A stretch of 64,000 nucleotides of DNA from an uncultured Eubacteriales bacterium (GTDB lineage Bacteria > Acidobacteriota > Aminicenantia > Aminicenantales > Saccharicenantaceae), in assembly GCA_964574895.1 (NCBI GenBank), contig CAZNPB010000001.1, positions 82,665 through 146,664 of the forward strand. Reading direction: 5' to 3'. Below are positions 24,030-36,772 of this stretch, piece by piece; the stretch's first letter is position 1; the number at the start of each line of letters is the position of its first letter. A program made the position numbers and the translations under genes. Under the pieces are notes generated by a model that saw only the letters and a program-made list of their open reading frames with translations, was not told the origin of the DNA and made no database searches.

Positions 24030-24185
24030 GTCATTCCTGATCGGCAGAGTTTGAGGGCGCTGTGGTCATCATCGGGATCATGTCCTTTTATAACAGGCCC
24101 GGACGGAACGGTCAACCGGCGGTAGTGGGTCAGTTTGAAAAAGGAAAGACTAGACAACGGGGATAGCGGATGTTATATTTAGGGT

Positions 24186-24413
24186 ATGCAAGAACGCTCA
24201 AGCAAGGACACGAAGGACATAAACCAGCTGGCGGCCTCGATAGTAGATCAAGCAACGGGCCAGGAAAGGCCCAAGAACCCCGCCGCTGTGGCCCTTGGGA
24301 AGCTCGGGGGCCTAAAAGGCGGCAGGGCCAGGGCAGAGAAGCTATCCCCCGAGAAGCGGCGGAGAATAGCCAAGAAGGCGGCCGCGGCAAGGTGGGGGAA
24401 GCCTCGCCCCTAG
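24186..24413 (+). CDS. small basic protein (75 aa) with GG(K/R)ARA...AAAARW motif, unknown function
   Basis: The C-terminus LGKLGGLKGGRARAEKLSPEKRRRIAKKAAAARW matches a motif I have repeatedly seen in small phage- or plasmid-borne proteins. It lies at the left edge of the AT-richer islet. The Shine-Dalgarno site is weak. Confidence 0.45.
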   Translation: MQERSSKDTKDINQLAASIVDQATGQERPKNPAAVALGKLGGLKGGRARAEKLSPEKRRRIAKKAAAARWGKPRP

Positions 24414-24460
24414 GGGCTATTGACTTTAGCAAACTTAAGGGATATTTATAGGGCGTCTAA

Positions 24461-24545
24461 TGGGCGGCACGAGATTCGAACTCGTAAGAGGCTACGCCTC
24501 GCTACCGTGCAAGAGTAGTGCGTATGCCGATTTCGCCAGCCGCCC
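24461..24545 (-). tRNA. class II (long variable arm, Leu-type D arm, A73) tRNA with anticodon UGC (alanine codon GCA)
   Basis: The reverse complement is GGGCGGCTGGCGAAATCGGCATACGCACTACTCTTGCACGGTAGCGAGGCGTAGCCTCTTACGAGTTCGAATCTCGTGCCGCCCA (85 nt). It folds with a 7-bp acceptor, a 3-bp D stem with a GG loop, anticodon arm CTACT/CTTGCAC/GGTAG, variable arm GAGGC-GTA-GCCTC, and T arm ACGAG/TTCGAAT/CTCGT. No CCA is encoded, which is also true of the native tRNA-Arg. Confidence 0.8.
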
Positions 24546-24560
24546 ACTAGGCGTCCAAAG

Positions 24561-24650
24561 TGCGGAGGGAGCAGGAATCGAACCTGTTGCCCGGGCAGAG
24601 CAAAGGAGTTTATAGGACTCCCGCCACTACCAAGTGGCCCCTCCCTCCGC
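24561..24650 (-). tRNA. non-canonical tRNA-like gene (tRNASec/allo-tRNA-type cloverleaf), anticodon loop CCUAUAA (UAU if read conventionally)
   Basis: The 90-nt reverse complement is GCGGAGGGAGGGGCCACTTGGTAGTGGCGGGAGTCCTATAAACTCCTTTGCTCTGCCCGGGCAACAGGTTCGATTCCTGCTCCCTCCGCA. It has a 9-10 bp acceptor, a 6-bp D stem with a 4-nt loop, a 5-6 bp anticodon stem, a 6-bp variable arm and a 4-bp T stem with a GGTTCGATTCC core. It lies 15 nt upstream of the other tRNA. Confidence 0.65.
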
Positions 24651-24662
24651 GCTTTCTTTTTT

Positions 24663-25067
24663 TCAAAACGATGGAAAATCATCCGCTTTCGGATACTCCT
24701 CTTTCTCAACTAAATCGTATGTCCCCTTGCCGACCCGCTTGAATATATCCCGGTGAAGGCTCAGGGTGGCCGTCATGGTAGCCCCCTGGTCCTTCGCCCC
24801 CTCAAATTTCTCGGCCCCGGTTTCAATTAGCCGAGATATGATCTCCTTGTAGTGCATGGGCCTTCCCGCTTCTCTCAAAACGGCGATGGTCTTCTGAACC
24901 CTCCCCGCCGACGCCGGTTCGGTCTTTGTCCTCCCCGGTTCTTTCCCCTCTGCCCTGGCGTAGTCCAGGCGGACCCTTTCCAGGGCGGAAATCCGGCGGT
25001 CTAGGGATTCCCGTTCTCTGGTGAGTTTCTTGATTTCCCGCTCAATCTGACTCAGGAAACTAGCCAT
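24663..25067 (-). CDS. coiled-coil + HARE-HTH domain protein (134 aa)
   Basis: ATG at 25067 with GGAGG 5 nt upstream. The N-terminus looks coiled-coil (IEREIKKLTRERESLDRRISALE). The C-terminus IAVLREAGRPMHYKEIISRLIE...ATMTATLSLHRDIFKRVGKGTYDL fits the HARE-HTH (RpoE-delta/restriction-associated) pattern. Confidence 0.6.
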   Translation of the reverse strand: MASFLSQIEREIKKLTRERESLDRRISALERVRLDYARAEGKEPGRTKTEPASAGRVQKTIAVLREAGRPMHYKEIISRLIETGAEKFEGAKDQGATMTATLSLHRDIFKRVGKGTYDLVEKEEYPKADDFPSF

Positions 25068-25100
25068 TTTCGCCTCCGCAATAATTCCCCGGATGGCATT

Positions 25101-25129
25101 ATGATAGCAATTGCGGATTGCCTTGTCAA
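25101..25129 (-). promoter_or_regulatory. near-consensus sigma70 promoter for the HARE-HTH/tRNA unit
   Basis: Read on the minus strand: TTGACA (25129-25124), a 17-nt spacer, then TATCAT (25106-25101). It lies about 30 nt upstream of the Shine-Dalgarno site and ATG. Confidence 0.55.
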
Positions 25130-25226
25130 GTTGTGAAATGCGAATTATTCGCCGTATAGTTAACATAATAAATTGATAAAATTATGTAAACCACAAATAA
25201 TATCTATTGCGAATTGTAGAAAATGC

Positions 25227-25255
25227 TTGACAATGCTTGAGCGGTCATGTATTAT
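25227..25255 (+). promoter_or_regulatory. near-consensus sigma70 promoter for the transposase (probably a leaderless transcript)
   Basis: TTGACA (25227-25232), a 17-nt spacer, then TATTAT (25250-25255). The ATG at 25262 lies 6 nt after the -10 box and has no Shine-Dalgarno site. Confidence 0.55.
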
Positions 25256-25261
25256 ATAGGC

Positions 25262-26104
25262 ATGAATCAGCTGAGCAAGGATAAGCGCGTTGCTGTTATC
25301 TCTGCCTTGGTAGAGGGGAATTCGATCAGGGCCACCAGCCGGATTACGGGGGTAGCCAAGGGGACGGTCTTGAAGCTCCTCCGCGATGTCGGCAGGGCTT
25401 GTGCCGAATACCAATGGGGAACCATTAAAGATATCGCTTGCCACCGGGTCCAATGCGATGAGATTTGGTCTTTCTGCTACGCCAAAGAGAAGAATGTTCC
25501 CAAAGACAAGAAGGGCGTATTTGGATTCGGCGATGTTTATACATGGACGGCGATCTGTGCTGAATCCAAACTGATTTTAAGTTGGTTCGTGGGGAGGCGT
25601 GATGCGATCTCGGCCCATTGGTTTATCAAGGACGTAGCCTCCCGCCTCAAGAATCGCGTCCAGCTGACAACGGACGGCCACAAGGTCTATCTAGAGGCCG
25701 TCGAGGCCGCCTTTGGCGCGGATATTGATTACGCCATGCTGGTGAAGATATACGGCGGAGAGGACAAGGAGGGGGCCGTCAGGTATAGCCCCGCTCCGTT
25801 TATTGACCAAATAAAAACCGGGATTATCGGGAACCCTGACCCCAAGCATATCTCTACCAGCTATGTAGAGCGGCAGAATCTTACCATGCGGATGAACATG
25901 AGGAGATTCACCCGTCTTACTAATGGGTTCTCAAAGAAGGTTGAAAACCTGGAATACGCCGTAGCCCTGCACTTTATGTATTACAATTTCTGTCGAATCC
26001 ACCAGACGTTACGGGTTACGCCCGCTATGGAGGCGAGGATTACAGATCACGTTTGGGATATTGGGGATATCTTAAGCTTGATGAATGTTTCGCAAATCGA
26101 ATGA
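25262..26104 (+). CDS. IS1-family DDE transposase (single ORF)
   Basis: N-terminal HTH (NSIRATSRITGVAKGTV). Catalytic-region motifs CDEIWSF, TDGHKVY and ERQNLTMRMNMRRFTRLTNGFSKK are characteristic of IS1-family transposases. Confidence 0.8.
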   Translation: MNQLSKDKRVAVISALVEGNSIRATSRITGVAKGTVLKLLRDVGRACAEYQWGTIKDIACHRVQCDEIWSFCYAKEKNVPKDKKGVFGFGDVYTWTAICAESKLILSWFVGRRDAISAHWFIKDVASRLKNRVQLTTDGHKVYLEAVEAAFGADIDYAMLVKIYGGEDKEGAVRYSPAPFIDQIKTGIIGNPDPKHISTSYVERQNLTMRMNMRRFTRLTNGFSKKVENLEYAVALHFMYYNFCRIHQTLRVTPAMEARITDHVWDIGDILSLMNVSQIE

Positions 26105-26898
26105 TTAAGCCGGTCATTTGCCAAGCGGATCGCTTCCAATTCTTCTTTTTTTAACCTTTCCGGTCGCGACCCCGGCTGAATGGTGGCAAGGCGAATCTCT
26201 CCGCCCACGGCAGTATTCGTGGCGGCGGTTTCGGCTATCATTCTATAGGCCAGGAGGGACGCCCTCTCCCTGGAGAGAGATTCATCAAAATGCCTCATGC
26301 TGAGATATTGGACATTTTCTCCGTGGCCAGAAAAGGCCGGTGATTTACCCTGGGGGGCTGGATGGAATCCCTCCGCGCTGTCTAGGGAGTATATTACTGG
26401 CTCCTCGTTCTTATAGCCAGCCAAAAGAATAGCTAGGCCGGGTTGCTGAAGGCCAGAACCAAAGGGGAACCACTCTTGATATGAGCCAGAAAAAAGACGC
26501 CAAATTTCTGAGGCGGCCTCATCTATGGTCTGAAAGTTGCCTCGCAATTTCTCGTCGTGCTTCCTCAGAAGGCCCATGCCAGTATTCCCTCGTCCCGCCA
26601 TGCCCAGTATATAGCTGTCGTACAGGAATAATTTTTCAGCGCCGTCTAAAAACTGATTCTTGGGGTTCAATTCCCGGCTATCGCTCCCCATAACAATAGC
26701 CCCTTGGGCCTTAATCCCGACAACGAGGGTCATGTCTTGGTTCACCCAGGATATATCTTCGCTAATACTATTTCCGCCATCGCCCCGTGTCAACAAGATG
26801 TTCTCGCCGCGATCACCGGCGCGGCACCCGGATTCAAACTGACCCATTACCCAACCGGCCCTCCCCTCCCCCGATGAGGCGGCCAGGGGGAATTTCAC
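26047..26898 (-). CDS. proteasome beta-subunit / HslV-like Ntn threonine hydrolase (orphan)
   Basis: Counting from the internal MT at 26733, the sequence is TLVVGIKAQGAIVMGSDSRELNPKNQFLDGAEKLF. This places Thr1, Asp17 and Lys33 at canonical proteasome spacing. Later matches include LLAGY..EEPVIYSLD and FSGHG. The start is either GTG 26898 (giving a 55-aa propeptide) or ATG 26733 (Thr exposed after Met removal). The last 19 codons overlap the 3' end of the transposase gene. Confidence 0.7.
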   Translation of the reverse strand: MKFPLAASSGEGRAGWVMGQFESGCRAGDRGENILLTRGDGGNSISEDISWVNQDMTLVVGIKAQGAIVMGSDSRELNPKNQFLDGAEKLFLYDSYILGMAGRGNTGMGLLRKHDEKLRGNFQTIDEAASEIWRLFSGSYQEWFPFGSGLQQPGLAILLAGYKNEEPVIYSLDSAEGFHPAPQGKSPAFSGHGENVQYLSMRHFDESLSRERASLLAYRMIAETAATNTAVGGEIRLATIQPGSRPERLKKEELEAIRLANDRLNHSICETFIKLKISPISQT

Positions 26899-30270: not shown

Positions 30271-31389
30271 CTAATATTTCCACACGACAGAATAGCGCTT
30301 CACGACCTCATAGCCTTCGTCATCGGCTTCGACGGTGTATAACTTGTTGCCTTTGAGAATGGTCGGCGTCGGGTTGATGAGATCGGGATGGGCGTTTAGT
30401 GGGAGCTGTCCGATAAACCGTCCTTCAGCATCATAAACGTCGTGAATGTCTTGTCTGCCGTTTGGAGTACGCTCCCAGGTCTGCACGAAGAGTCTGCCGT
30501 GATCATCGCCGAAAAAACTGCGAAAGGCCGCATGAACCGAGGGGCAAGGGAATCTCGGCGGGGCGGATGATCCCGGCGGGTTGGATCGCTTCAGGTATAT
30601 CTTCCTATCTTCATCCGTCACTTTGGCTGGTTCATATTCCCGGCGGATCCTTTTGACTTCCTTAAAATGTCTATCATAGAGAGAGATTTCATAGGTTTTG
30701 GGATATCCGAAGATCAGTTGGTCTTGAGGATCAAGGATCCAAAACTCCCGTGGCGAATATAAGTTCAAATCGGGGGGCTGGGGAATGGTGGCTATATCGG
30801 CAAGGACCGTCGCCATGTCAGAGCCGAAAATGCGATAAACAACCCGTCTTTCACGAGGGTCACGAATGCTGAGATAAACGTTTCCCCGTCCGTCGGCGAA
30901 TCCCGAAGAAAGGAAGCCCTTGGTCGCTATGTTCTTTTTAAATCGCCCTTGAAGATCGAATACGACCAGCTTGCCGATATCACCGACGACGAGTTCCTGT
31001 CTCTCCTGGCTGATGGTGATAGAATCCACCAAGCTCAGTTCACCCGGCCCTTGTCCTCCTCGGCCGATCGTCCTTATATATGCACCGGCTTTGTCAAAAA
31101 CCTTAATGCATGATCGCTGAAGATCACCGACGTAAATATTGCCCTCGTTATCGACGGCAATTCTCCAAGCCCTGGAAAATACGGCTTCTCCCTGAGCTTT
31201 TGCCCCACCCAAAGCCAAGTCCTCTTTGAGGATCAGAATCGGTTCCTTGTAGATTGGCTCTCGTGGATTCAGGACGATCGTGACATCGCCCTCTTTGACG
31301 ATCTTGCCCTTCCACTTGAGCTGAGCGGCGGAGGTGGCCATTAAAGCCAATAGGAGGATGGCTGCGGCAATTCCCTTGCTCTTTTTCAT
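30271..31389 (-). CDS. 6-bladed beta-propeller (NHL-like) family protein, paralog 1, secreted
   Basis: MKKSKGIAAAILLLALMATSAAQ signal peptide. GGQGPGEL motif. C-terminal KGNKLYTVE..GYEVVKRY is shared with the neighbouring genes. AT-richer codon use. Confidence 0.8.
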   Translation of the reverse strand: MKKSKGIAAAILLLALMATSAAQLKWKGKIVKEGDVTIVLNPREPIYKEPILILKEDLALGGAKAQGEAVFSRAWRIAVDNEGNIYVGDLQRSCIKVFDKAGAYIRTIGRGGQGPGELSLVDSITISQERQELVVGDIGKLVVFDLQGRFKKNIATKGFLSSGFADGRGNVYLSIRDPRERRVVYRIFGSDMATVLADIATIPQPPDLNLYSPREFWILDPQDQLIFGYPKTYEISLYDRHFKEVKRIRREYEPAKVTDEDRKIYLKRSNPPGSSAPPRFPCPSVHAAFRSFFGDDHGRLFVQTWERTPNGRQDIHDVYDAEGRFIGQLPLNAHPDLINPTPTILKGNKLYTVEADDEGYEVVKRYSVVWKY

Positions 31390-31441
31390 GTATGACCCCC
31401 TTTGTCTCCTTTGCCCTGCTTCCGAGCGTCCTACTAGATAA

Positions 31442-31456
31442 GGCGCGATCACCGCC
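31442..31456. repeat. GC-rich 15-nt motif, copy 2 (GGCGCGATCACCGCC)
   Basis: Part of a 30-nt block (31441-31470) with 25/30 identity to 32649-32677. It lies immediately 3' of paralog 2. Confidence 0.55.
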
Positions 31457-31468
31457 CTTAACCTGCGT

Positions 31469-32614
31469 CTAATTGATCAATCGGGCCCAGCTGGGGAGCC
31501 CCGACAGTGAATAGCGAACCAGCTCCAGGGTTTCGGTCTCGGTCGGAACAAGCACATACAATCCATGGTCATGAAGGGTCAGAGGCGCATAGCTGAGCCG
31601 CATCCACTCGAGCCCTCGGGGTAAGGGGAGCATCAGGGATCCCAGGAAGGAGCCTTTCAAGTCATAGATATCGATTCGGGCGAGCCGCCGCGCCTCATCG
31701 AAGGTCGAGGTAAGGACCCAGATCCTCCCGTTCAGGACCCAAATCCTCAGCACGTCGTCCAGCGTCTCATGTTCGAAGGATTTGACCTCGCTCCCGCTCA
31801 GCGTCAGACTGGGCGCGTAGAACTTATCTCGGGGCGACTTCCATTCGGGCCGAATCTTGACCTTCGGATAGTCCCGGCTGATGAAGGGCGAGATCTCCAT
31901 CCGGCCCAGGTCCAGGCGTCGAATGTCGTAGCCCCCGTTATCCGCGATAAGGAATGTCGATTCATCGGCTCTGGCGATCTGAACGTAGCACACGTTCTTG
32001 AGATAGCTCGTATCGCGGACAAAATAGCGCTTGGGGAACCAGGGGCCTTCCGTGCGGGCTTCCGCGTCGCCGGGCGCGGCGGACAACAGACGCACCGGGA
32101 CATCAAGGAACGTCGCTTGCCCGCCAGTATTCTGGAAAAATTCGCGGAAAAAGAAGAAGCGCCCGTCCCGGCCGCCGAGCAGACCGGCATGTCCGAGCGT
32201 CGAGGGCATCGATGCTTCCTGCAGGACGTTTCCCTCGCGGCCGAAGATGATCATCTTGTTCGGATTCCGGTTGAAAACGAGAACGCGGTCGTTTTCCGGG
32301 ATAAATCCGGCGAGATCGCTCAGCTCTCCAGGTCCCTGGCCTCTCTTGAAGAAATTGCGCAAGAATCTCCCCTGAGGAGAGAAAAGGAGCAACTGTCCTT
32401 CGTCGGCGACCCAGACAAAGCCGCGCTCGTCGATCTGGGGCGGATCGGGAGAGGAAAAATAGAAGGCGCCGGGCCGGTCGACGACCCGCCACGTCTCCTC
32501 CAGAACGACAACAGGGACTTTATCTGCGCCGGGGATACCATTGCCTAGACAAAGAAAGGCAAGGAAGGAGCATGCCCCAGTCCGGACGATACTCTGCCAT
32601 CTTGATTCTCGCAA
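31469..32614 (-). CDS. 6-bladed beta-propeller family protein, paralog 2
   Basis: RGQGPGELS motif and family-wide colinearity. Only a TTG start (32614) is available, so the start is uncertain. Confidence 0.7.
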   Translation of the reverse strand: MRESRWQSIVRTGACSFLAFLCLGNGIPGADKVPVVVLEETWRVVDRPGAFYFSSPDPPQIDERGFVWVADEGQLLLFSPQGRFLRNFFKRGQGPGELSDLAGFIPENDRVLVFNRNPNKMIIFGREGNVLQEASMPSTLGHAGLLGGRDGRFFFFREFFQNTGGQATFLDVPVRLLSAAPGDAEARTEGPWFPKRYFVRDTSYLKNVCYVQIARADESTFLIADNGGYDIRRLDLGRMEISPFISRDYPKVKIRPEWKSPRDKFYAPSLTLSGSEVKSFEHETLDDVLRIWVLNGRIWVLTSTFDEARRLARIDIYDLKGSFLGSLMLPLPRGLEWMRLSYAPLTLHDHGLYVLVPTETETLELVRYSLSGLPSWARLIN

Positions 32615-32649
32615 TATTCTCTCTCTCCCAGGAACGTCTCTCGCTATGA

Positions 32650-32664
32650 GGCGCGATATCCGCC
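32650..32664. repeat. GC-rich 15-nt motif, copy 3 (GGCGCGATATCCGCC)
   Basis: Lies immediately 3' of paralog 3. See copies 1 and 2. Confidence 0.55.
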
Positions 32665-32683
32665 CTGACCGGCGTCTCGGTAG

Positions 32684-33859
32684 CTACTCCCATTTCATTT
32701 TATAAACTGTTAGCGCCACGTAGCCGCTGTCCTTTTCTCTGAGGCAGTAGAGGTGGTCGCCCTTCGCAAGAACCCCCAGAGGACTGGCACTGTATCTTCC
32801 GCCATCGACGTACTGAATCCGGACGTTATCGAGCTGGAACCTTCCGATGAATACGCCGCCGTTTGTGAAGATATCGTACCAATACTCGCGTTCCCCTTCC
32901 CACTCGTTGCTCATGACGTATAGACGGCCTTGATCGTCTGCGAACAGAAAGCGGAAAGGTGGCAGATACGTTGCCCAGTCAAGCTTGTTCAGCATCTCCT
33001 GCCCGTGGGTGACGCGGCTCATGACCTTCACGAGAAGCTCTTTATATTGCTCGGGAACAGGGACGGGGCGATATTCCTTGCGGAGCTTCCTCACGAGTCT
33101 CCCGGAGAAATCGAAGACGGAGATCTCGTAGCCCCCCGTAGAGTCCCCGACGAAAATGCGGTCGTTTGAAGCGCCAACGATTAATGCCCCGCCGACTGGT
33201 CTCCAACGGGGAGCCTTCAGCGCATCTTCAAACTCATAAGTGTAGAATTCCCGATTCTCGGTAAGAGCATCGTTAGAAATGTAATAGTGATTCCTGAGCA
33301 CAGGTTCCGCTGGGTCCTGTTCCTGCCACCAGGTCAGGTACTTGTTGCTGCCCAAATATTGCCCAAGCGAAATATTCTTGCTGAGCTTTGTCTCTTGAAG
33401 TAGGAGGCCTTCTCCGCTGAAGGCATAGAACTCCTTCTTGGTCATGTCTTTGGCGAGAACGCGGTTCTGCTCATCGATCAAGATATCCCCGCCCCAGTCG
33501 AACTCACCGGGTCCCTGACCCTTACGCCCGAAGGACATCAGGAACTTCCCCGATTTATCGAATTTATAGATAAAATTCTCGGGACTCTGCCGCATCATGC
33601 AATAGATGTTTCCGTCGCGGTCCAGGCAAAATGACTCGATCATGGTCAAGCCTGTCTGCACGATGCTGTCTTTCTCGGTGTCGATGGAAAAGACCTCCTC
33701 GAGTTTGAGGGTGGAAGGCACGCCCGGAAGAGAATAGGGCTCGACATGATTGACAATGACCTCGACCCCGTCTTCGATGATCTTGTCGACCTGGGACTGT
33801 TTGGCTTTACAGGACACGAGGAGAGCAATGGCCAGAAAACAAGCAGGTATTTTCCTCAT
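32684..33859 (-). CDS. 6-bladed beta-propeller family lipoprotein, paralog 3
   Basis: Lipobox LLVSC. KGQGPGEF motif. C-terminal KGDHLYCLREKDSGYVALTVY. Confidence 0.8.
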   Translation of the reverse strand: MRKIPACFLAIALLVSCKAKQSQVDKIIEDGVEVIVNHVEPYSLPGVPSTLKLEEVFSIDTEKDSIVQTGLTMIESFCLDRDGNIYCMMRQSPENFIYKFDKSGKFLMSFGRKGQGPGEFDWGGDILIDEQNRVLAKDMTKKEFYAFSGEGLLLQETKLSKNISLGQYLGSNKYLTWWQEQDPAEPVLRNHYYISNDALTENREFYTYEFEDALKAPRWRPVGGALIVGASNDRIFVGDSTGGYEISVFDFSGRLVRKLRKEYRPVPVPEQYKELLVKVMSRVTHGQEMLNKLDWATYLPPFRFLFADDQGRLYVMSNEWEGEREYWYDIFTNGGVFIGRFQLDNVRIQYVDGGRYSASPLGVLAKGDHLYCLREKDSGYVALTVYKMKWE

Positions 33860-34030
33860 CTCTGCCGTTCCCCTTGGATAACCCGATTATTGATCAGCTC
33901 CGTCCGGAATACAATCCCTCTCCCCGTCCGATTCTGGGGCCCTATATCCTCCTTGGGAAGGGTCTCTCTATATGCCTCGCAATACCCGCACCAATCGGCG
34001 ATCATGGAGCCGGGTCCCATGATCAGGACC

Positions 34031-35221
34031 TCACTTCCACATCATTCGATAGGCTACAAGCTCCTTATAGCCGCTGGGTTTTTCGCGGATGGCATAGAGA
34101 CGGTTCTTCTTGGAAATGATCCACGAGTCCATCGGACTGCCTGGCGCAAAAGGATCGGCTGAGAGGTAAGCGTTAACGCTCGTCCTGGCAAAGAATATTC
34201 CCTCAGGAGTGAAGATGTCGAAGATGTATTCCCCCGGTTTCTCTCCGGCTTCATAGGTCATGACGAACAATCGTCCTCTGTCATCACAAAAAAGGTGCTG
34301 AAAAGGAGGGCTGGCCTTGGGAAAATCCAGCTTGGCCTTGAGAGAAGAAAGCTGGGGGGAATCAAGCGCCTTGAGTATTCCCTGTCTCTTACTCTCCGGG
34401 AAAGGCGCTTCGACGAATTCTTTCCTAATCTTTCCAACAAGATTTCCGCTCTGGTCATAGACACGGATTTCATAGCCCTTGTCGGGATTCCCCAAATAGA
34501 TCCGGTCCCGCGCCACAGCCCAGCAAGTGAGCGAATAAGGAATCTGGATCTTCGAGACACCGAACGGATGTGGTAAAACGACCCGATCGAGCTCGCAAAT
34601 GTTCCGTAACTCACGGTCGATCAGGGAATATCCCATGACAAGGCCTGGAAATCCTTTACCCGCCTCCAATCCGGTCTTTCGGTAGAGATTGTTCCCGGAA
34701 GCTAATTGAAGAAGAAGGAAGCCGCCTTTGATATCGAGAGGCAATTCGGCCTCTCGCAAAATGGCGCCATGTTGGTCAAAGACAAAGAGCTTCTTCGTCA
34801 TCATATCCATTAAGGAGAGTTCTTCATCGACAGTAATCCTTTGGTAGATCGGCCATTGGATCTCACCCGGTCCCTGGCCTTTCGGGGCAAAAGACCTAAG
34901 AAATCGTCCCGACGCATCGAATTGGGAAATGAATGTACCATTGCTCAGCGGAGACTGGTAAACATAGATGTCGCCCAGAGAAGTCACATCAAAACCCCAG
35001 ATATCGACAATACCCTTTTCGGCTAGATCAGAACGCTCCGTGTCGATTGAGAATTCCCGTTCCAAGGACAGGGACAAAGGCGCTCCCTCAACAAGATATG
35101 GCTGGGTGTGATTGACAATGATTTCAACGCCATTCTCGACTATCCTATCGACTTGAGCATGTTGGGATCTACAGGAAACAAGTAGAGCGATTGGCACAAG
35201 GAAAGCGGCTAACCTCTTCAT
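34031..35221 (-). CDS. 6-bladed beta-propeller family lipoprotein, paralog 4
   Basis: Lipobox LLVSC. KGQGPGEI motif. C-terminal KKNRLYAIREKPSGYKELVAY. GGGAGAGGG Shine-Dalgarno site. Confidence 0.8.
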   Translation of the reverse strand: MKRLAAFLVPIALLVSCRSQHAQVDRIVENGVEIIVNHTQPYLVEGAPLSLSLEREFSIDTERSDLAEKGIVDIWGFDVTSLGDIYVYQSPLSNGTFISQFDASGRFLRSFAPKGQGPGEIQWPIYQRITVDEELSLMDMMTKKLFVFDQHGAILREAELPLDIKGGFLLLQLASGNNLYRKTGLEAGKGFPGLVMGYSLIDRELRNICELDRVVLPHPFGVSKIQIPYSLTCWAVARDRIYLGNPDKGYEIRVYDQSGNLVGKIRKEFVEAPFPESKRQGILKALDSPQLSSLKAKLDFPKASPPFQHLFCDDRGRLFVMTYEAGEKPGEYIFDIFTPEGIFFARTSVNAYLSADPFAPGSPMDSWIISKKNRLYAIREKPSGYKELVAYRMMWK

Positions 35222-35366
35222 CTCGGCCCTCTCCCAATAGTCACGCCCTCAACGAGCCTAATGTCCGGTTCTTCTCTTTTCGCGCGAGCCCATTCCGTTC
35301 TCCGCATTAGCCGAGCCCAGGATTTACAGAGCCACCCCGCTCGAATCCTGTTCTTCGTCTCGGGCA

Positions 35367-36518
35367 TTAGAAACCGAAGCTCACGGAATACCTGACGATA
35401 GACGGAAATCCGGCCTCATCCTGTTCGACAGTGTAGAATTTCCCGCCTTTCCACAACATTGGCTTCTCGATGAGTGCTGTAAATGGGTGGCGGATCATAG
35501 CGATATAGCGGCCTTCTTGATCAAAGACATCGAAGACCGTCTTCCTCTCCTTGCTCGGATCATCCGCTATACTGGAGAAGGAAAGGACGAAAAGCCGCCC
35601 CGAATCATCACATTTCACGACACGATAAGGAGGATGGAACCGAGGGAATTCGAGATGGATGGGATCGGACGGATTTCGCTTCTTATGCTCGTTGACGATC
35701 GCTTGTTTTTCTTCATCGGCAACAGGATTGGGATCCCAGTCCTTGAGTATCCTCTTCTGCAAGTGCCCTCGGGCGTCGAATATTCGTATCTCATATCCTT
35801 CGGTCGGACAGCCATAAACGAGCCGATCGTCGGGCATCACCGCGAAAGACATGATTGGATCGAAGATACTCACTCTTTTGGGATCAGGCATCGGCAGCGG
35901 CCACGTCGCGAGAACTGCGGCTTCTTCCGTCCTGCTGTCGAGACGGGACAACTTGAAACCGGGGGGCTCCATGGAAAAATCCATGATGTAATACACGCCC
36001 TTGGAATCGTAGTCCACTTTGATGGGAGAGAAGGCCTTGAGCAAATACTGCCTCAGATATAGTCCGTCCGGAGCGAAATATTCAATACTCCTATTTCCTT
36101 CGCAAGTAACCATGGTCTCGCCGTTCGAGCTGACGTGAAGGTTGCCGGCGCCGCTGAATTCGCCGGGACCCTGCCCTGGACGACCTACTGTCCTTAAGAA
36201 ACGGCCATTTCTGTCGAACACTCGGACGTCATCACCTTTGAGGTCGATAGCGTAGATACTGCCGTCGTCGCCCACGGCGAGATCTGTGATCTCCGTAAAC
36301 AAGTATTCCTGATCCCCTTCGGGCGCGCCGATCTTTAGATCTTGGACGATTTTGATTTCCGCGTTTTCATACAAGGGGTTCTTTGGATTGCTGACTATAA
36401 CAACGCCATCCTTCTCGGTAATCGTGCCTTCCCACGCGCCCCTATTTCCCCCACAAGCAGCGCAGGCCCATAGAAGAAGAATCGTAGCCCGCCATCCGAC
36501 GGAGTGCTTGAATGCCAT
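35367..36518 (-). CDS. 6-bladed beta-propeller family lipoprotein, paralog 5
   Basis: Lipobox-like LLWACAAC. PGQGPGEF motif. C-terminal KGGKFYTVEQDEAGFPSIVRY. Confidence 0.8.
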   Translation of the reverse strand: MAFKHSVGWRATILLLWACAACGGNRGAWEGTITEKDGVVIVSNPKNPLYENAEIKIVQDLKIGAPEGDQEYLFTEITDLAVGDDGSIYAIDLKGDDVRVFDRNGRFLRTVGRPGQGPGEFSGAGNLHVSSNGETMVTCEGNRSIEYFAPDGLYLRQYLLKAFSPIKVDYDSKGVYYIMDFSMEPPGFKLSRLDSRTEEAAVLATWPLPMPDPKRVSIFDPIMSFAVMPDDRLVYGCPTEGYEIRIFDARGHLQKRILKDWDPNPVADEEKQAIVNEHKKRNPSDPIHLEFPRFHPPYRVVKCDDSGRLFVLSFSSIADDPSKERKTVFDVFDQEGRYIAMIRHPFTALIEKPMLWKGGKFYTVEQDEAGFPSIVRYSVSFGF

Positions 36519-36698
36519 CGCCCACCCCCTATTCTGAATACGCCCGACTGGCCTCCAAATCCCTCTCGATTTCGGTTAATTGGAATATTAACATCGCAGA
36601 CCTTCAAAAGCCAATCTCCCGCCGCTGTTGGAATCGAAATGAGAAAGAATTAAGAGGCGTGACCGATAAAGGTATGAAAATAAAGAGGAATAGGAGAG

Positions 36699-36772
36699 CG
36701 CGCCCGGGGTGACTCGAACACCCGACCTGCTGATTCGTAGTCAGACGCTCTATCCAACTGAGCTACGGGCGC
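36699..36772 (-). tRNA. tRNA-Arg (anticodon ACG), canonical class I
   Basis: The reverse complement is GCGCCCGTAGCTCAGTTGGATAGAGCGTCTGACTACGAATCAGCAGGTCGGGTGTTCGAGTCACCCCGGGCGCG. It has a 7/5 acceptor/T branch and anticodon loop CTACGAA. No CCA is encoded. Confidence 0.9.

Follow-up and report, generated by a model that had tools for sequence, protein, structure and literature searches.

An intact allo-tRNA(UAU) gene carried as passenger cargo by an IS1-type transposon in an Aminicenantes-like host

The stretch of DNA considered here, a 64-kb segment referred to below as the window, carries an intact allo-tRNA-type gene with tRNASec-like architecture and the anticodon UAU, which is held as passenger cargo in a 2,731-bp IS1-type transposon (24121-26851). 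The labels L171, L208, L221 and the like designate the loci and contigs with which it was compared. The gene is placed as follows, on the evidence of its fold, of its detection by tRNA models and of covariation among its relatives:

24561 to 24650, minus strand: allo-tRNA-type gene, with the anticodon UAU at 24612-24614 in the loop CCUAUAA (C33)

Read 5' to 3' on the minus strand, the RNA of 24561-24650 is GCGGAGGGAG GG GCCACU UGGU AGUGGC GGGAGU CCUAUAA ACUCCU UUGCUC UGCCC GGGCAA CAGG UUCGAUU CCUG CUCCCUCCGC A, and its minimum-free-energy structure (RNAfold) is a cloverleaf of -49.5 kcal/mol (z = -4.49), as good as which none of 200 shuffled sequences folded. The acceptor part of this structure is a 10-bp helix followed by a GG linker, with an A after the helix; the D arm consists of a 6-bp stem and the loop UGGU, the anticodon arm of a 6-bp stem and the loop CCUAUAA, the variable (V) arm of a 6-bp stem and a 5-nt loop, and the T arm of the 4-bp stem CAGG/CCUG and the loop UUCGAUU. 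Every stem and loop listed in the original prediction, which had been made from the letters of the window and had drawn a 90-nt cloverleaf on the reverse complement of these positions, is thus present and reproduced by the computed fold. Two of the tools suggested with that prediction recognise the gene: ARAGORN annotates it as tRNA-Ile(tat) at 24562-24645, and the Rfam model of tRNA-Sec (RF01852) aligns to 24564-24648, with an 8-bp acceptor in the alignment, at 54.4 bits (gathering score 47, E = 3e-8). With R1, a custom covariance model derived from the family of this gene, the window copy reaches 105.6 bits. The prediction had also held that the architecture is that of tRNASec or an allo-tRNA and that the molecule is nevertheless not a Sec tRNA, which agrees with a RF01852 score of this size beside the anticodon UAU and a 4-bp T stem.

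Relatives of the gene were reached by way of the proteins encoded beside it. Homologues of the HARE-HTH protein encoded directly upstream number six (54-66% identity), and in all five of the homologue contigs that reach past the stop codon an allo-type tRNA lies directly 3' of it; a further confidently called tRNA stands behind the allo-tRNA in four of these five, and only a weak, degenerate match in the fifth, L180. The sixth contig (L209) stops 35 nt past the HARE-HTH stop, within the apparent start of another allo-type gene. Two additional variants, obtained through close relatives of the transposase, bring the set to eight distinct allo-type sequences (68-98% identical to the window copy), which differ in anticodon and at position 33:

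Window: anticodon UAU, position 33 C
L221: anticodon UAU, position 33 C
L208: anticodon UAU, position 33 U, with a C.A mismatch at 31.39
L171: anticodon UAU, position 33 U, with a C.A mismatch at 31.39
L177: anticodon UAG, position 33 U
L180: anticodon UAG, position 33 U
L220: anticodon UAG, position 33 C
L182: anticodon UAG, position 33 C

Pairing in the proposed helices was scored in two alignments:

MAFFT alignment, 6 sequences: 94.8% of cells paired, 15 of 32 pairs changed on both sides, equalled by 0 of 500 shuffles
Model-based alignment, 8 sequences: 96.5% of cells paired, 16 of 32 pairs changed on both sides, equalled by 0 of 500 shuffles

Because the variants share descent, and because the model was used to fit the second alignment, the shuffle counts are not probabilities; however, the independent MAFFT result and the controls in which the 3' partners were slid, whereby pairing in the model-based alignment of the eight sequences falls to 44-57%, both agree with the model-based covariation. 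Double changes occur among the eight variants in every helix (five in the acceptor, four in the D stem, three in the anticodon stem, and two each in the V and T stems). Among the close variants, the DNA identity of the allo-tRNA exceeds that of the adjacent transposase gene (98, 94 and 89% versus 79, 79 and 77%). The cloverleaf is real and under selection, and it is neither a chance fold nor a decaying pseudogene, because covariation extends over all the helices and conservation stands above that of the transposase gene; the decaying pseudogene named in the original prediction as a refutation fails, the stems being kept by compensatory changes.

Searches for further members were less productive. 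The pattern TGGT..CCTATAA..GGTTCRANTCC, in which C33 is obligatory and which proved too strict, gave 47 matches in a genome set of 185k species, all of them chance matches or unrelated tRNAs. A structure-aware DNA pattern, which in 1.4 Mb of test sequence picked out the five variants known at that stage and no other site, returned from a metagenome collection two known contigs again and unrelated sequences, with no further member, and from viral contigs two false matches only. Model R1, run over about 580 kb of related or viral loci, found no member beyond the eight.

The acceptor stem may be read at two lengths. A 10-bp helix of the form GC + N8 … N8 + GC is possible in all eight variants, being followed by A in seven and by G in one (L221), and the helix in the variants extends beyond an 8-bp stem by 2 invariant bp and up to 4 more. 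The inner 8 pairs covary (five are double-changed), whereas the outer G:C and C:G are invariant and hence uninformative. The T stem has 4 bp in all eight variants, with covariation at two of them, and cannot be lengthened by a fifth pair (A.C or U.C); a 9/4 or 9/5 architecture was rejected. Directly after the 8-bp acceptor stem a G (24563) is found in all eight. In the second tRNA, which lies 14 nt downstream, 9-11 bp of pairing between leader and trailer are added to the acceptor helix, C.A being compensated to U:A in L171, and when the whole 223-nt stretch is folded, two cloverleaves appear, each on a leader-trailer stalk (z = -5.3). The mature allo-tRNA would, with somewhat better likelihood, be an 8/4 molecule with G73 (24563-24648) on a processing stalk rather than a 10/4 molecule with the A as discriminator, because a 4-bp T stem needs an 8-bp acceptor for the 12-bp branch of working tRNAs and of published allo-tRNAs, and because the neighbouring 7/5 tRNA also has leader-trailer pairing well past its mature stem. 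The missing encoded CCA is uninformative, since the host's own tRNA-Arg gene is also without one. Accordingly, the 9-10-bp acceptor with an A discriminator of the original prediction stands as far as the 10-bp helix folds, but the mature form is more likely that of 8 bp and G73.

The anticodon loop is conserved in a particular way: positions 32, 34, 35 and 38 are invariant among the variants, 33 is a pyrimidine (Y), 36 is U or G, and 37 is a purine (R). Elongator tRNAs have U33 almost without exception, whereas the vertebrate initiator tRNA is a known case of C33. C33, on which the original prediction had remarked, is present in the window gene, but it is not unique to it, as C33 and U33 alternate across the variants; it accompanies the anticodon UAG in L220 and L182 and occurs likewise in the second tRNA of L208, and the anticodon arm GGGAGU CCUAUAA ACUCCU is identical in L221 although the transposase DNA of L221 is only 79% identical. 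The C33 allele of the window and the U33 allele of L208 are only 2 nt apart. By this comparison C33 is a recurrent polymorphism and not a private mutation.

Two points go beyond the original prediction, namely the second irregular tRNA downstream and the transposon that encloses both tRNA genes. The features of the tRNA cassette and its operon, apart from the allo-tRNA, are the following:

24460 to 24546, minus strand: second tRNA, called by ARAGORN and scored at 48.7 bits by RF00005, 14 nt downstream of the allo-tRNA
24663 to 25067, minus strand: HARE-HTH protein gene, 134 aa, Pfam PF05066 at 33 bits, with its stop codon 12 nt upstream of the allo-tRNA
25101 to 25129, minus strand: sigma-70-like promoter in front of the HARE-HTH gene, TTGACA-17-TGnTATCAT, agreeing with the consensus at 11 of 12 positions
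24400 to 24418, no strand assigned: GC-rich hairpin between the convergent small open reading frame (ORF) and the tRNA cassette, from a terminator scan

The second tRNA has 7/5 geometry, a long V arm (class II), the anticodon UGC for the alanine codon GCA, A73 and no encoded CCA, and with G3:C70 it is without the alanine identity pair G3:U70; in the homologues from L171 and L208, substitutions in the acceptor, anticodon and V stems compensate one another. Body and anticodon thus disagree, which makes it a candidate missense tRNA itself. The HARE-HTH gene is annotated as 134 aa in identical public contigs too, and searches with its protein in Pfam, NCBIfam, PADLOC, PHROGs and PDB yielded no functional lead. 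To judge from its sequence and position, the promoter at 25101-25129 presumably drives a HARE-HTH-tRNA-tRNA transcript, and the hairpin at 24400-24418, the sequence of which is seen again after the second tRNA in L171, L177, L180 and L208, is likely a bidirectional terminator.

In the sister elements the allo-tRNA carries UAU or UAG and the second tRNA UGC, UGG, UAU or UUA; the anticodons of the cassettes (UAU, UAG, UGC, UGG, UCC and, in L220, the stop-reading UUA) are all U-initial, for A-ending codons. The partner in L220 (L220:2309-2384, minus strand) is 76 nt long, its anticodon UUA being that for ochre; at L212:2777-2971 (minus strand) a UAG tRNA comes after a class II tRNA with UCC, and a further partner lies at L177:4529-4600. 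The UAG and UGG partner tRNAs of the sister elements have a pyrimidine (C) at position 37. In L221 there is no second tRNA, and a Fic protein (SoFic defence model, 137 bits) stands in place of HARE-HTH.

The remaining features belong to the transposon that bounds this operon:

24113 to 24120, no strand assigned: left target-site duplication, 8 bp, CAACCGGC, identical to 26852-26859 and just outside the terminal inverted repeats
24121 to 24139, plus strand: left terminal inverted repeat, 19 bp, GGTAGTGGGTCAGTTTGAA, pairing with 26833-26851
24186 to 24413, plus strand: conserved ORF of a small basic protein, 75 aa, …KNPAAVALGKLGGLKGGRARAEKLSPEKRRRIAKKAAAARW…, with a sigma-70-like promoter at 24151-24179
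25262 to 26104, plus strand: single-ORF DDE transposase, 280 aa (upstream ATG at 25247), NCBIfam IS1 and weak Pfam matches
26047 to 26847, minus strand: variable cargo gene, proteasome-beta/Ntn-hydrolase-like, 266 aa, Pfam Proteasome 26 bits, TIGR03634 27 bits
26833 to 26851, minus strand: right terminal inverted repeat, GGTAATGGGTCAGTTTGAA on the minus strand, pairing with 24121-24139
26852 to 26859, no strand assigned: right target-site duplication, 8 bp, CAACCGGC, a perfect copy

The two terminal repeats agree at 18 of 19 positions and are the only two matches in the window, where 0.01 would be expected by chance. Compared with the sister loci, the window is similar in DNA sequence from the transposase gene as far as 24121, and the similarity ends exactly there. 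The repeat sequence is found again at the ends of the sister elements, those of L171 being flanked by the near-perfect duplication GGTGGCGG, and in nearly all the loci with relatives of the window transposase (about 40 other loci) the repeat core TGGGTCAGTTTGA delimits an element of 2.2-4.1 kb. The repeats start with GGTRRTG, which resembles the ends of IS1 (GGTRATG). The best match of the transposase is NCBIfam transpos_IS1 at 54 bits, below the cut-off of 100, with weak Pfam matches to DDE_Tnp_IS240 and DDE_Tnp_IS1; its relatives, at least 8000 in number and named 'IS1 family transposase' by NCBI and JGI, come from Acidobacteria, Aminicenantes, Methylomirabilis and others. The genes flanking the element differ between loci (antiporter and OMP genes in the window, SpoU/ACCase in L180, a ferredoxin gene in L177). 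The insertions are independent, one and the same module lying at unrelated positions in other metagenomes and with other anticodons. The 'island' to which the original prediction had assigned the gene is thus of low GC content, as was stated, but it is a discrete 2.7-kb IS1-type transposon, apart from the propeller-gene island described below.

The small ORF has homologues of 76-88 aa at the same position in L171, L179, L180, L182 and L208. Its product (…LGGLKGGxARAEKLSPxxRRxIAxKAAxxRW…) was seen in all seven of the elements carrying an allo-tRNA that were checked for it (all but L177), and being under 80 aa it is skipped by a default ORF listing; Pfam, NCBIfam, PADLOC and PDB gave nothing for it, and the PHROGs only a weak match to a family of unknown function. 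The cargo slot is filled in the sister elements by DUF2299, by a 96-aa ORF or by a DUF4258/DUF2283 toxin-antitoxin pair, and in the wider IS1-like clade (L215, L216-L219, L221-L249) the cargo comprises SoFic-like Fic, DUF4258/DUF2283, SocA_Panacea with P63C, proteasome-like proteins and DUF2299. Ordinary-looking passenger tRNAs are also carried in the clade, with the anticodons GCU (L225, 73 nt), CGG (L226) and CGC (L241). Just downstream of the transposase in Acidiferrales-type elements (L216-L219:4358-4451), ARAGORN calls a 94-nt 'tRNA-Met(CAU)', which is without Rfam support, forms a long irregular hairpin and is probably no tRNA.

The element has a GC content of 52% and its flanks 67-70%, in keeping with the host of about 70% and the AT-richer island of the original prediction. 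The named top matches of the flanking CPA2 antiporter are all from Aminicenantes, by which the host is placed as Aminicenantes-like. Long ORFs were considered as taxonomic markers and dropped as spurious high-GC frames, the flanking antiporter being taken instead: in the parts of the window at about 70% GC (1-24000 and 37000-64000) many of the longest ORFs are spurious antisense frames, all eight minus-strand ORFs tested had no Pfam match, and ORF length is there a poor guide to real genes. A second low-GC region (53%) holds five tandem paralogous DUF5128 6-bladed beta-propeller genes (30271-36518, minus strand), ends beside a normal tRNA-Arg(ACG) gene (36698-36772, minus strand) and may be a separate integrated island.

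The use of A-ending codons differs between the host and the element:

ATA among Ile codons: 1/95 in host high-GC genes, 15/52 in element genes
CTA among Leu codons: 2/265 in host high-GC genes, 7/60 in element genes
GCA among Ala codons: 1/252 in host high-GC genes, 5/71 in element genes
CCA among Pro codons: 1/107 in host high-GC genes, 4/26 in element genes

The rarity of AUA in the host that the original prediction had supposed is borne out by these counts, and the in-frame ATA codons which it had located at 25748-25750 and 33848-33850 are both there. The share of CTA among the Leu codons is 23% in the elements carrying UAG and 14.5% in those carrying UAU, whereas the GCA trend is opposite to that expected if codon use tracked the anticodon, and GC content confounds both trends. 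U-initial anticodons together with A-ending codons fit either the supply of rare codons or a tolerated missense role.

Allo-tRNA(UAU) is a class already described and no curiosity, and the window gene belongs to it; the paper named in the original prediction (Mukai et al., Nucleic Acids Res 2017) was the right one. The gene matches the (8/4) allo-tRNA(UAU) group in the main text of that paper (PMC5389517). As that text describes them, the members of the group were found, like the window gene, by a tRNASec model, have a non-UCA, non-serine anticodon among which UAU predominates, a long V arm, D and anticodon stems of 6 bp each, the D loop being a tetraloop, a T stem of 4 bp and a G after the 8-bp stem, are of acidobacterial type and are linked to transposons and toxin-antitoxin systems (PMC5389517). 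The window gene, unlike that group as described there, has no broken pairs, its helix runs beyond the 8-bp stem, and C33 alternates with U33 in its family (PMC5389517). Soil-metatranscriptome polycistrons in the same text (tRNA0/1/2) resemble the window cassette in that an allo-type tRNA is closely followed by a second odd tRNA, and the anticodons suggest missense or nonsense suppression both in them and here (UGC on a class II body, UUA in L220); the partners in those polycistrons have G-1 or an extra loop and the anticodons GGU or GCU, whereas the window partner is a 7/5 class II tRNA with UGC, a comparison made by description only (PMC5389517). By the account given in the main text, the window gene fits the structural definition of the (8/4) allo-tRNA(UAU) group in its T stem, V arm, D arm and 5-6-bp anticodon stem, and probably also in an 8-bp acceptor and G73, and shares its transposon and toxin-antitoxin association and its polycistronic habit (PMC5389517). 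IS1, HTH, U33 and C33 are unmentioned in the main text of Mukai et al., a check that did not extend to the figures and supplement (PMC5389517). No paper was found that describes the carrier element, its operon, the Y33 polymorphism, the stalks or an Aminicenantes-like host, the figures and supplement of the 2017 paper lying outside that search as well.

Other known systems share single traits with the locus. The nematode nev-tRNAs are, like the window gene, class II tRNAs with UAU (Ile) or Gly (CCC) anticodons for rare codons (Hamashima et al. 2012, PMC3333845), and they are charged with Leu by the body and not by the anticodon (PMC3333845); they are, however, eukaryotic, 7/5 in geometry, derived from tRNA-Leu and located off mobile elements (PMC3333845), and may serve as a functional analogue of the window allo-tRNA. 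Insertion sequences of the IS1 family with passengers have in common with the carrier a DDE transposase, in the carrier probably related to that of IS1, and a short target duplication (8-9 bp in the family, 8 bp here), whereas the carrier differs from the usual IS1 in its single-ORF transposase, its passenger operon of HARE-HTH, two tRNAs and a small basic protein, and its variable cargo slot. Phage tRNA arrays are, like the window element, mobile DNA that is AT-richer than the host and carries tRNAs for host-rare codons, but the long-V-arm UAU tRNAs of phages differ by U33, by a D stem of 4 bp and by the conserved V loop CAGAUURG, and reach only 20-34 bits with R1. These were seen in more than 120 IMG/VR viral contigs (L001-L120, e.g. 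L013:3872-3961, L003:1771-1858 and L002:3570-3664) as UAU tRNAs of 88-95 nt with the anticodon loop CUUAUAA on a stem of 6-7 bp, a D stem of 4 bp closed by the tetraloop UGGU, and a long V arm whose conserved loop reads CAGAU(U/G)RG; they lie partly in large phage tRNA arrays (35 tRNAs in L013), and a subgroup (L002, L020, L024, L031, L037, L061, L111) has the 8/4 fold. The canonical bacterial AUA-reading tRNA-Ile was rejected as a counterpart, as only the UAU anticodon fits (the canonical type has UAU or, with lysidine, CAU), and a class II tRNASec-like body with C33 stands against 7/5 geometry, a short variable loop and U33.

The account of function given most weight here, although tentatively and with slightly less than even odds of being right, is that of a mobile missense or rare-codon tRNA which is processed, charged in an anticodon-blind manner and reads AUA in a host that almost never uses this codon. 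The HARE-HTH gene and the two tRNAs would be transcribed together, RNase P and 3' nucleases would cut each tRNA from its leader-trailer stalk, and CCA would then be added, giving a mature 8/4 form with a 12-bp acceptor branch, G73 and a long V arm. It would be charged by a synthetase that ignores the anticodon, which should be SerRS or LeuRS rather than IleRS because the body has a long V arm and G73 or A73; SerRS would be the likeliest, as with other allo-tRNAs, and LeuRS would fit if the mature form had the 10-bp stem with an A discriminator. Reading of AUA by such a tRNA would be tolerated since the host is almost without AUA, while AT-richer mobile DNA has it often.

Several observations weigh against this account. 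C33 occurs in four of the eight variants, with U33 in the others, and this proportion is a real oddity which weakens a purely conventional role in decoding; the linker at positions 8-9 is RR, with no U8. Insertion of Ser or Leu at AUA would mean that the element's own ATA-rich genes are mistranslated, and the codon use of the elements does not convincingly track their own anticodons across the variants. The supply of codons to the AT-richer genes, one of the options of the original prediction, accordingly has mixed support, in that ATA makes up 15 of 52 Ile codons in the element against 1 of 95 in the host, but the expected tracking is missing. The published experiments cut both ways, because standard allo-tRNAs inserted Ser and six species of the UAU type were inactive: in the main text of Mukai et al., long-V-arm allo-tRNAs bearing G73 or U73 were charged with Ser, which they inserted at Leu codons in E. 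coli with toxic effect, whereas all six allo-tRNA(UAU) species recast as amber suppressors proved inactive in E. coli, two of them being lethal (PMC5389517).

A close rival is that the gene specifies a non-translational tRNA-like RNA which serves the transposon and never enters the ribosome, whether by defining and stabilising the 3' end of the HARE-HTH (or Fic) mRNA through RNase P and the CCA enzyme, by acting as decoy or antidote against toxins or defence enzymes that target tRNAs, or by a regulatory action; this is quite possible, although it is not what would be expected in the first place. The frequency of C33, the purine at position 8 instead of U8 and the long leader-trailer stalks would suit such an RNA, as would a loop in which 32, 34, 35 and 38 are fixed and 33 and 36 flip, as if the motif C-Y-U-A-K-R-A were read by a protein. 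The gene directly upstream is exchangeable for a SoFic-like Fic (L221), the cargo includes toxin-antitoxin genes (DUF4258/DUF2283 and SocA_Panacea), and position 37 is a pyrimidine in second tRNAs from sister elements; Mukai et al., who saw allo-tRNA(UAU) inactive, proposed a role of this kind in their main text (PMC5389517). However, the anticodon stem and the 7-nt size of the loop are kept by compensatory change, the 12-bp geometry of an 8/4 form, which EF-Tu and the ribosome require, is probably retained, the anticodon toggles cleanly between two sense triplets, and the partner tRNAs have a spread of U34 anticodons, as in a decoding set.

It is unlikely that the gene is a true helper tRNA-Ile, charged by IleRS through the UAU-A37-A38 loop and an A discriminator on a 10-bp stem and decoding AUA as isoleucine for AT-richer mobile genes. 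ATA does form 29% of the Ile codons in the element and 1% in host genes, A37 and A38 are there together with the A that follows the 10-bp helix, and in the phage array L013 a long-V-arm UAU tRNA is the sole reader of AUA. Substrates of IleRS or EF-Tu are, however, not known to have a class II V arm, a D arm like that of tRNASec or a branch of 14 bp; moreover, the exchange of UAU for UAG on an unchanged body in sister elements argues for an identity independent of the anticodon, and in L221 the helix is followed by G and not by A.

A decaying tRNA pseudogene or a chance fold has a very small likelihood. An Edaphobacter allo-tRNA(UAU) pseudogene with broken pairs appears in the main text of Mukai et al. 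(PMC5389517), and C33 could be read as decay, but with 96.5% of the pair cells intact in the eight variants and 16 double-changed pairs this explanation is effectively refuted; the C33 anticodon arm is common to the independently diverged L221, the gene retains 94-98% identity against 79% in the transposase DNA, and a z of -4.5 speaks against a chance fold. A selenocysteine tRNA, for which the RF01852 score above the gathering threshold would speak, has practically no likelihood at all and was rejected, since both anticodon and branch length fail (UAU here and UAU or UAG in the relatives, never the UCA of bacterial tRNASec, with which only the architecture is common; a 4-bp T stem giving a branch of 12 or 14 bp, instead of a 5-bp T stem and the 13-bp (8/5) branch), the gene lies on a transposon, and such matches were treated as false positives of the tRNASec model in the main text of Mukai et al. 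(PMC5389517).

Allo-tRNAs are the clearest natural case of disagreement between tRNA body and anticodon and a widely used chassis for genetic-code expansion, and most of them have been seen only as isolated metagenomic genes. The present locus puts an intact allo-tRNA(UAU) into a fully delimited mobile element that comes with a predicted promoter, conserved companion genes, a partner tRNA and seven sister variants. The new points are the exact IS1-type carrier with its terminal repeats and target duplication, the conserved operon of HARE-HTH, two tRNAs and a small protein, the Y33 polymorphism, the stalks and the Aminicenantes-like host. For annotation it is a warning, as pipelines would label such genes tRNA-Sec or tRNA-Ile. 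With 2.7 kb of DNA, and host genes almost without the codon concerned, it also makes a compact testable system. A wider proposal, to be regarded as rather unlikely, is that the IS1-like clade may transport an exchangeable cassette of two tRNAs with diversifying anticodons, by which the genetic code would be altered; these tRNAs would be charged regardless of anticodon and act on A-ending codons left unused by a host of 70% GC. If this were true, the effect would fall selectively on AT-rich DNA, that is, on the element itself, on phages and on rival mobile elements, and the Y33 polymorphism, the stalks and the exchange of HARE-HTH for SoFic would be marks of conflict or defence and not of housekeeping decoding.

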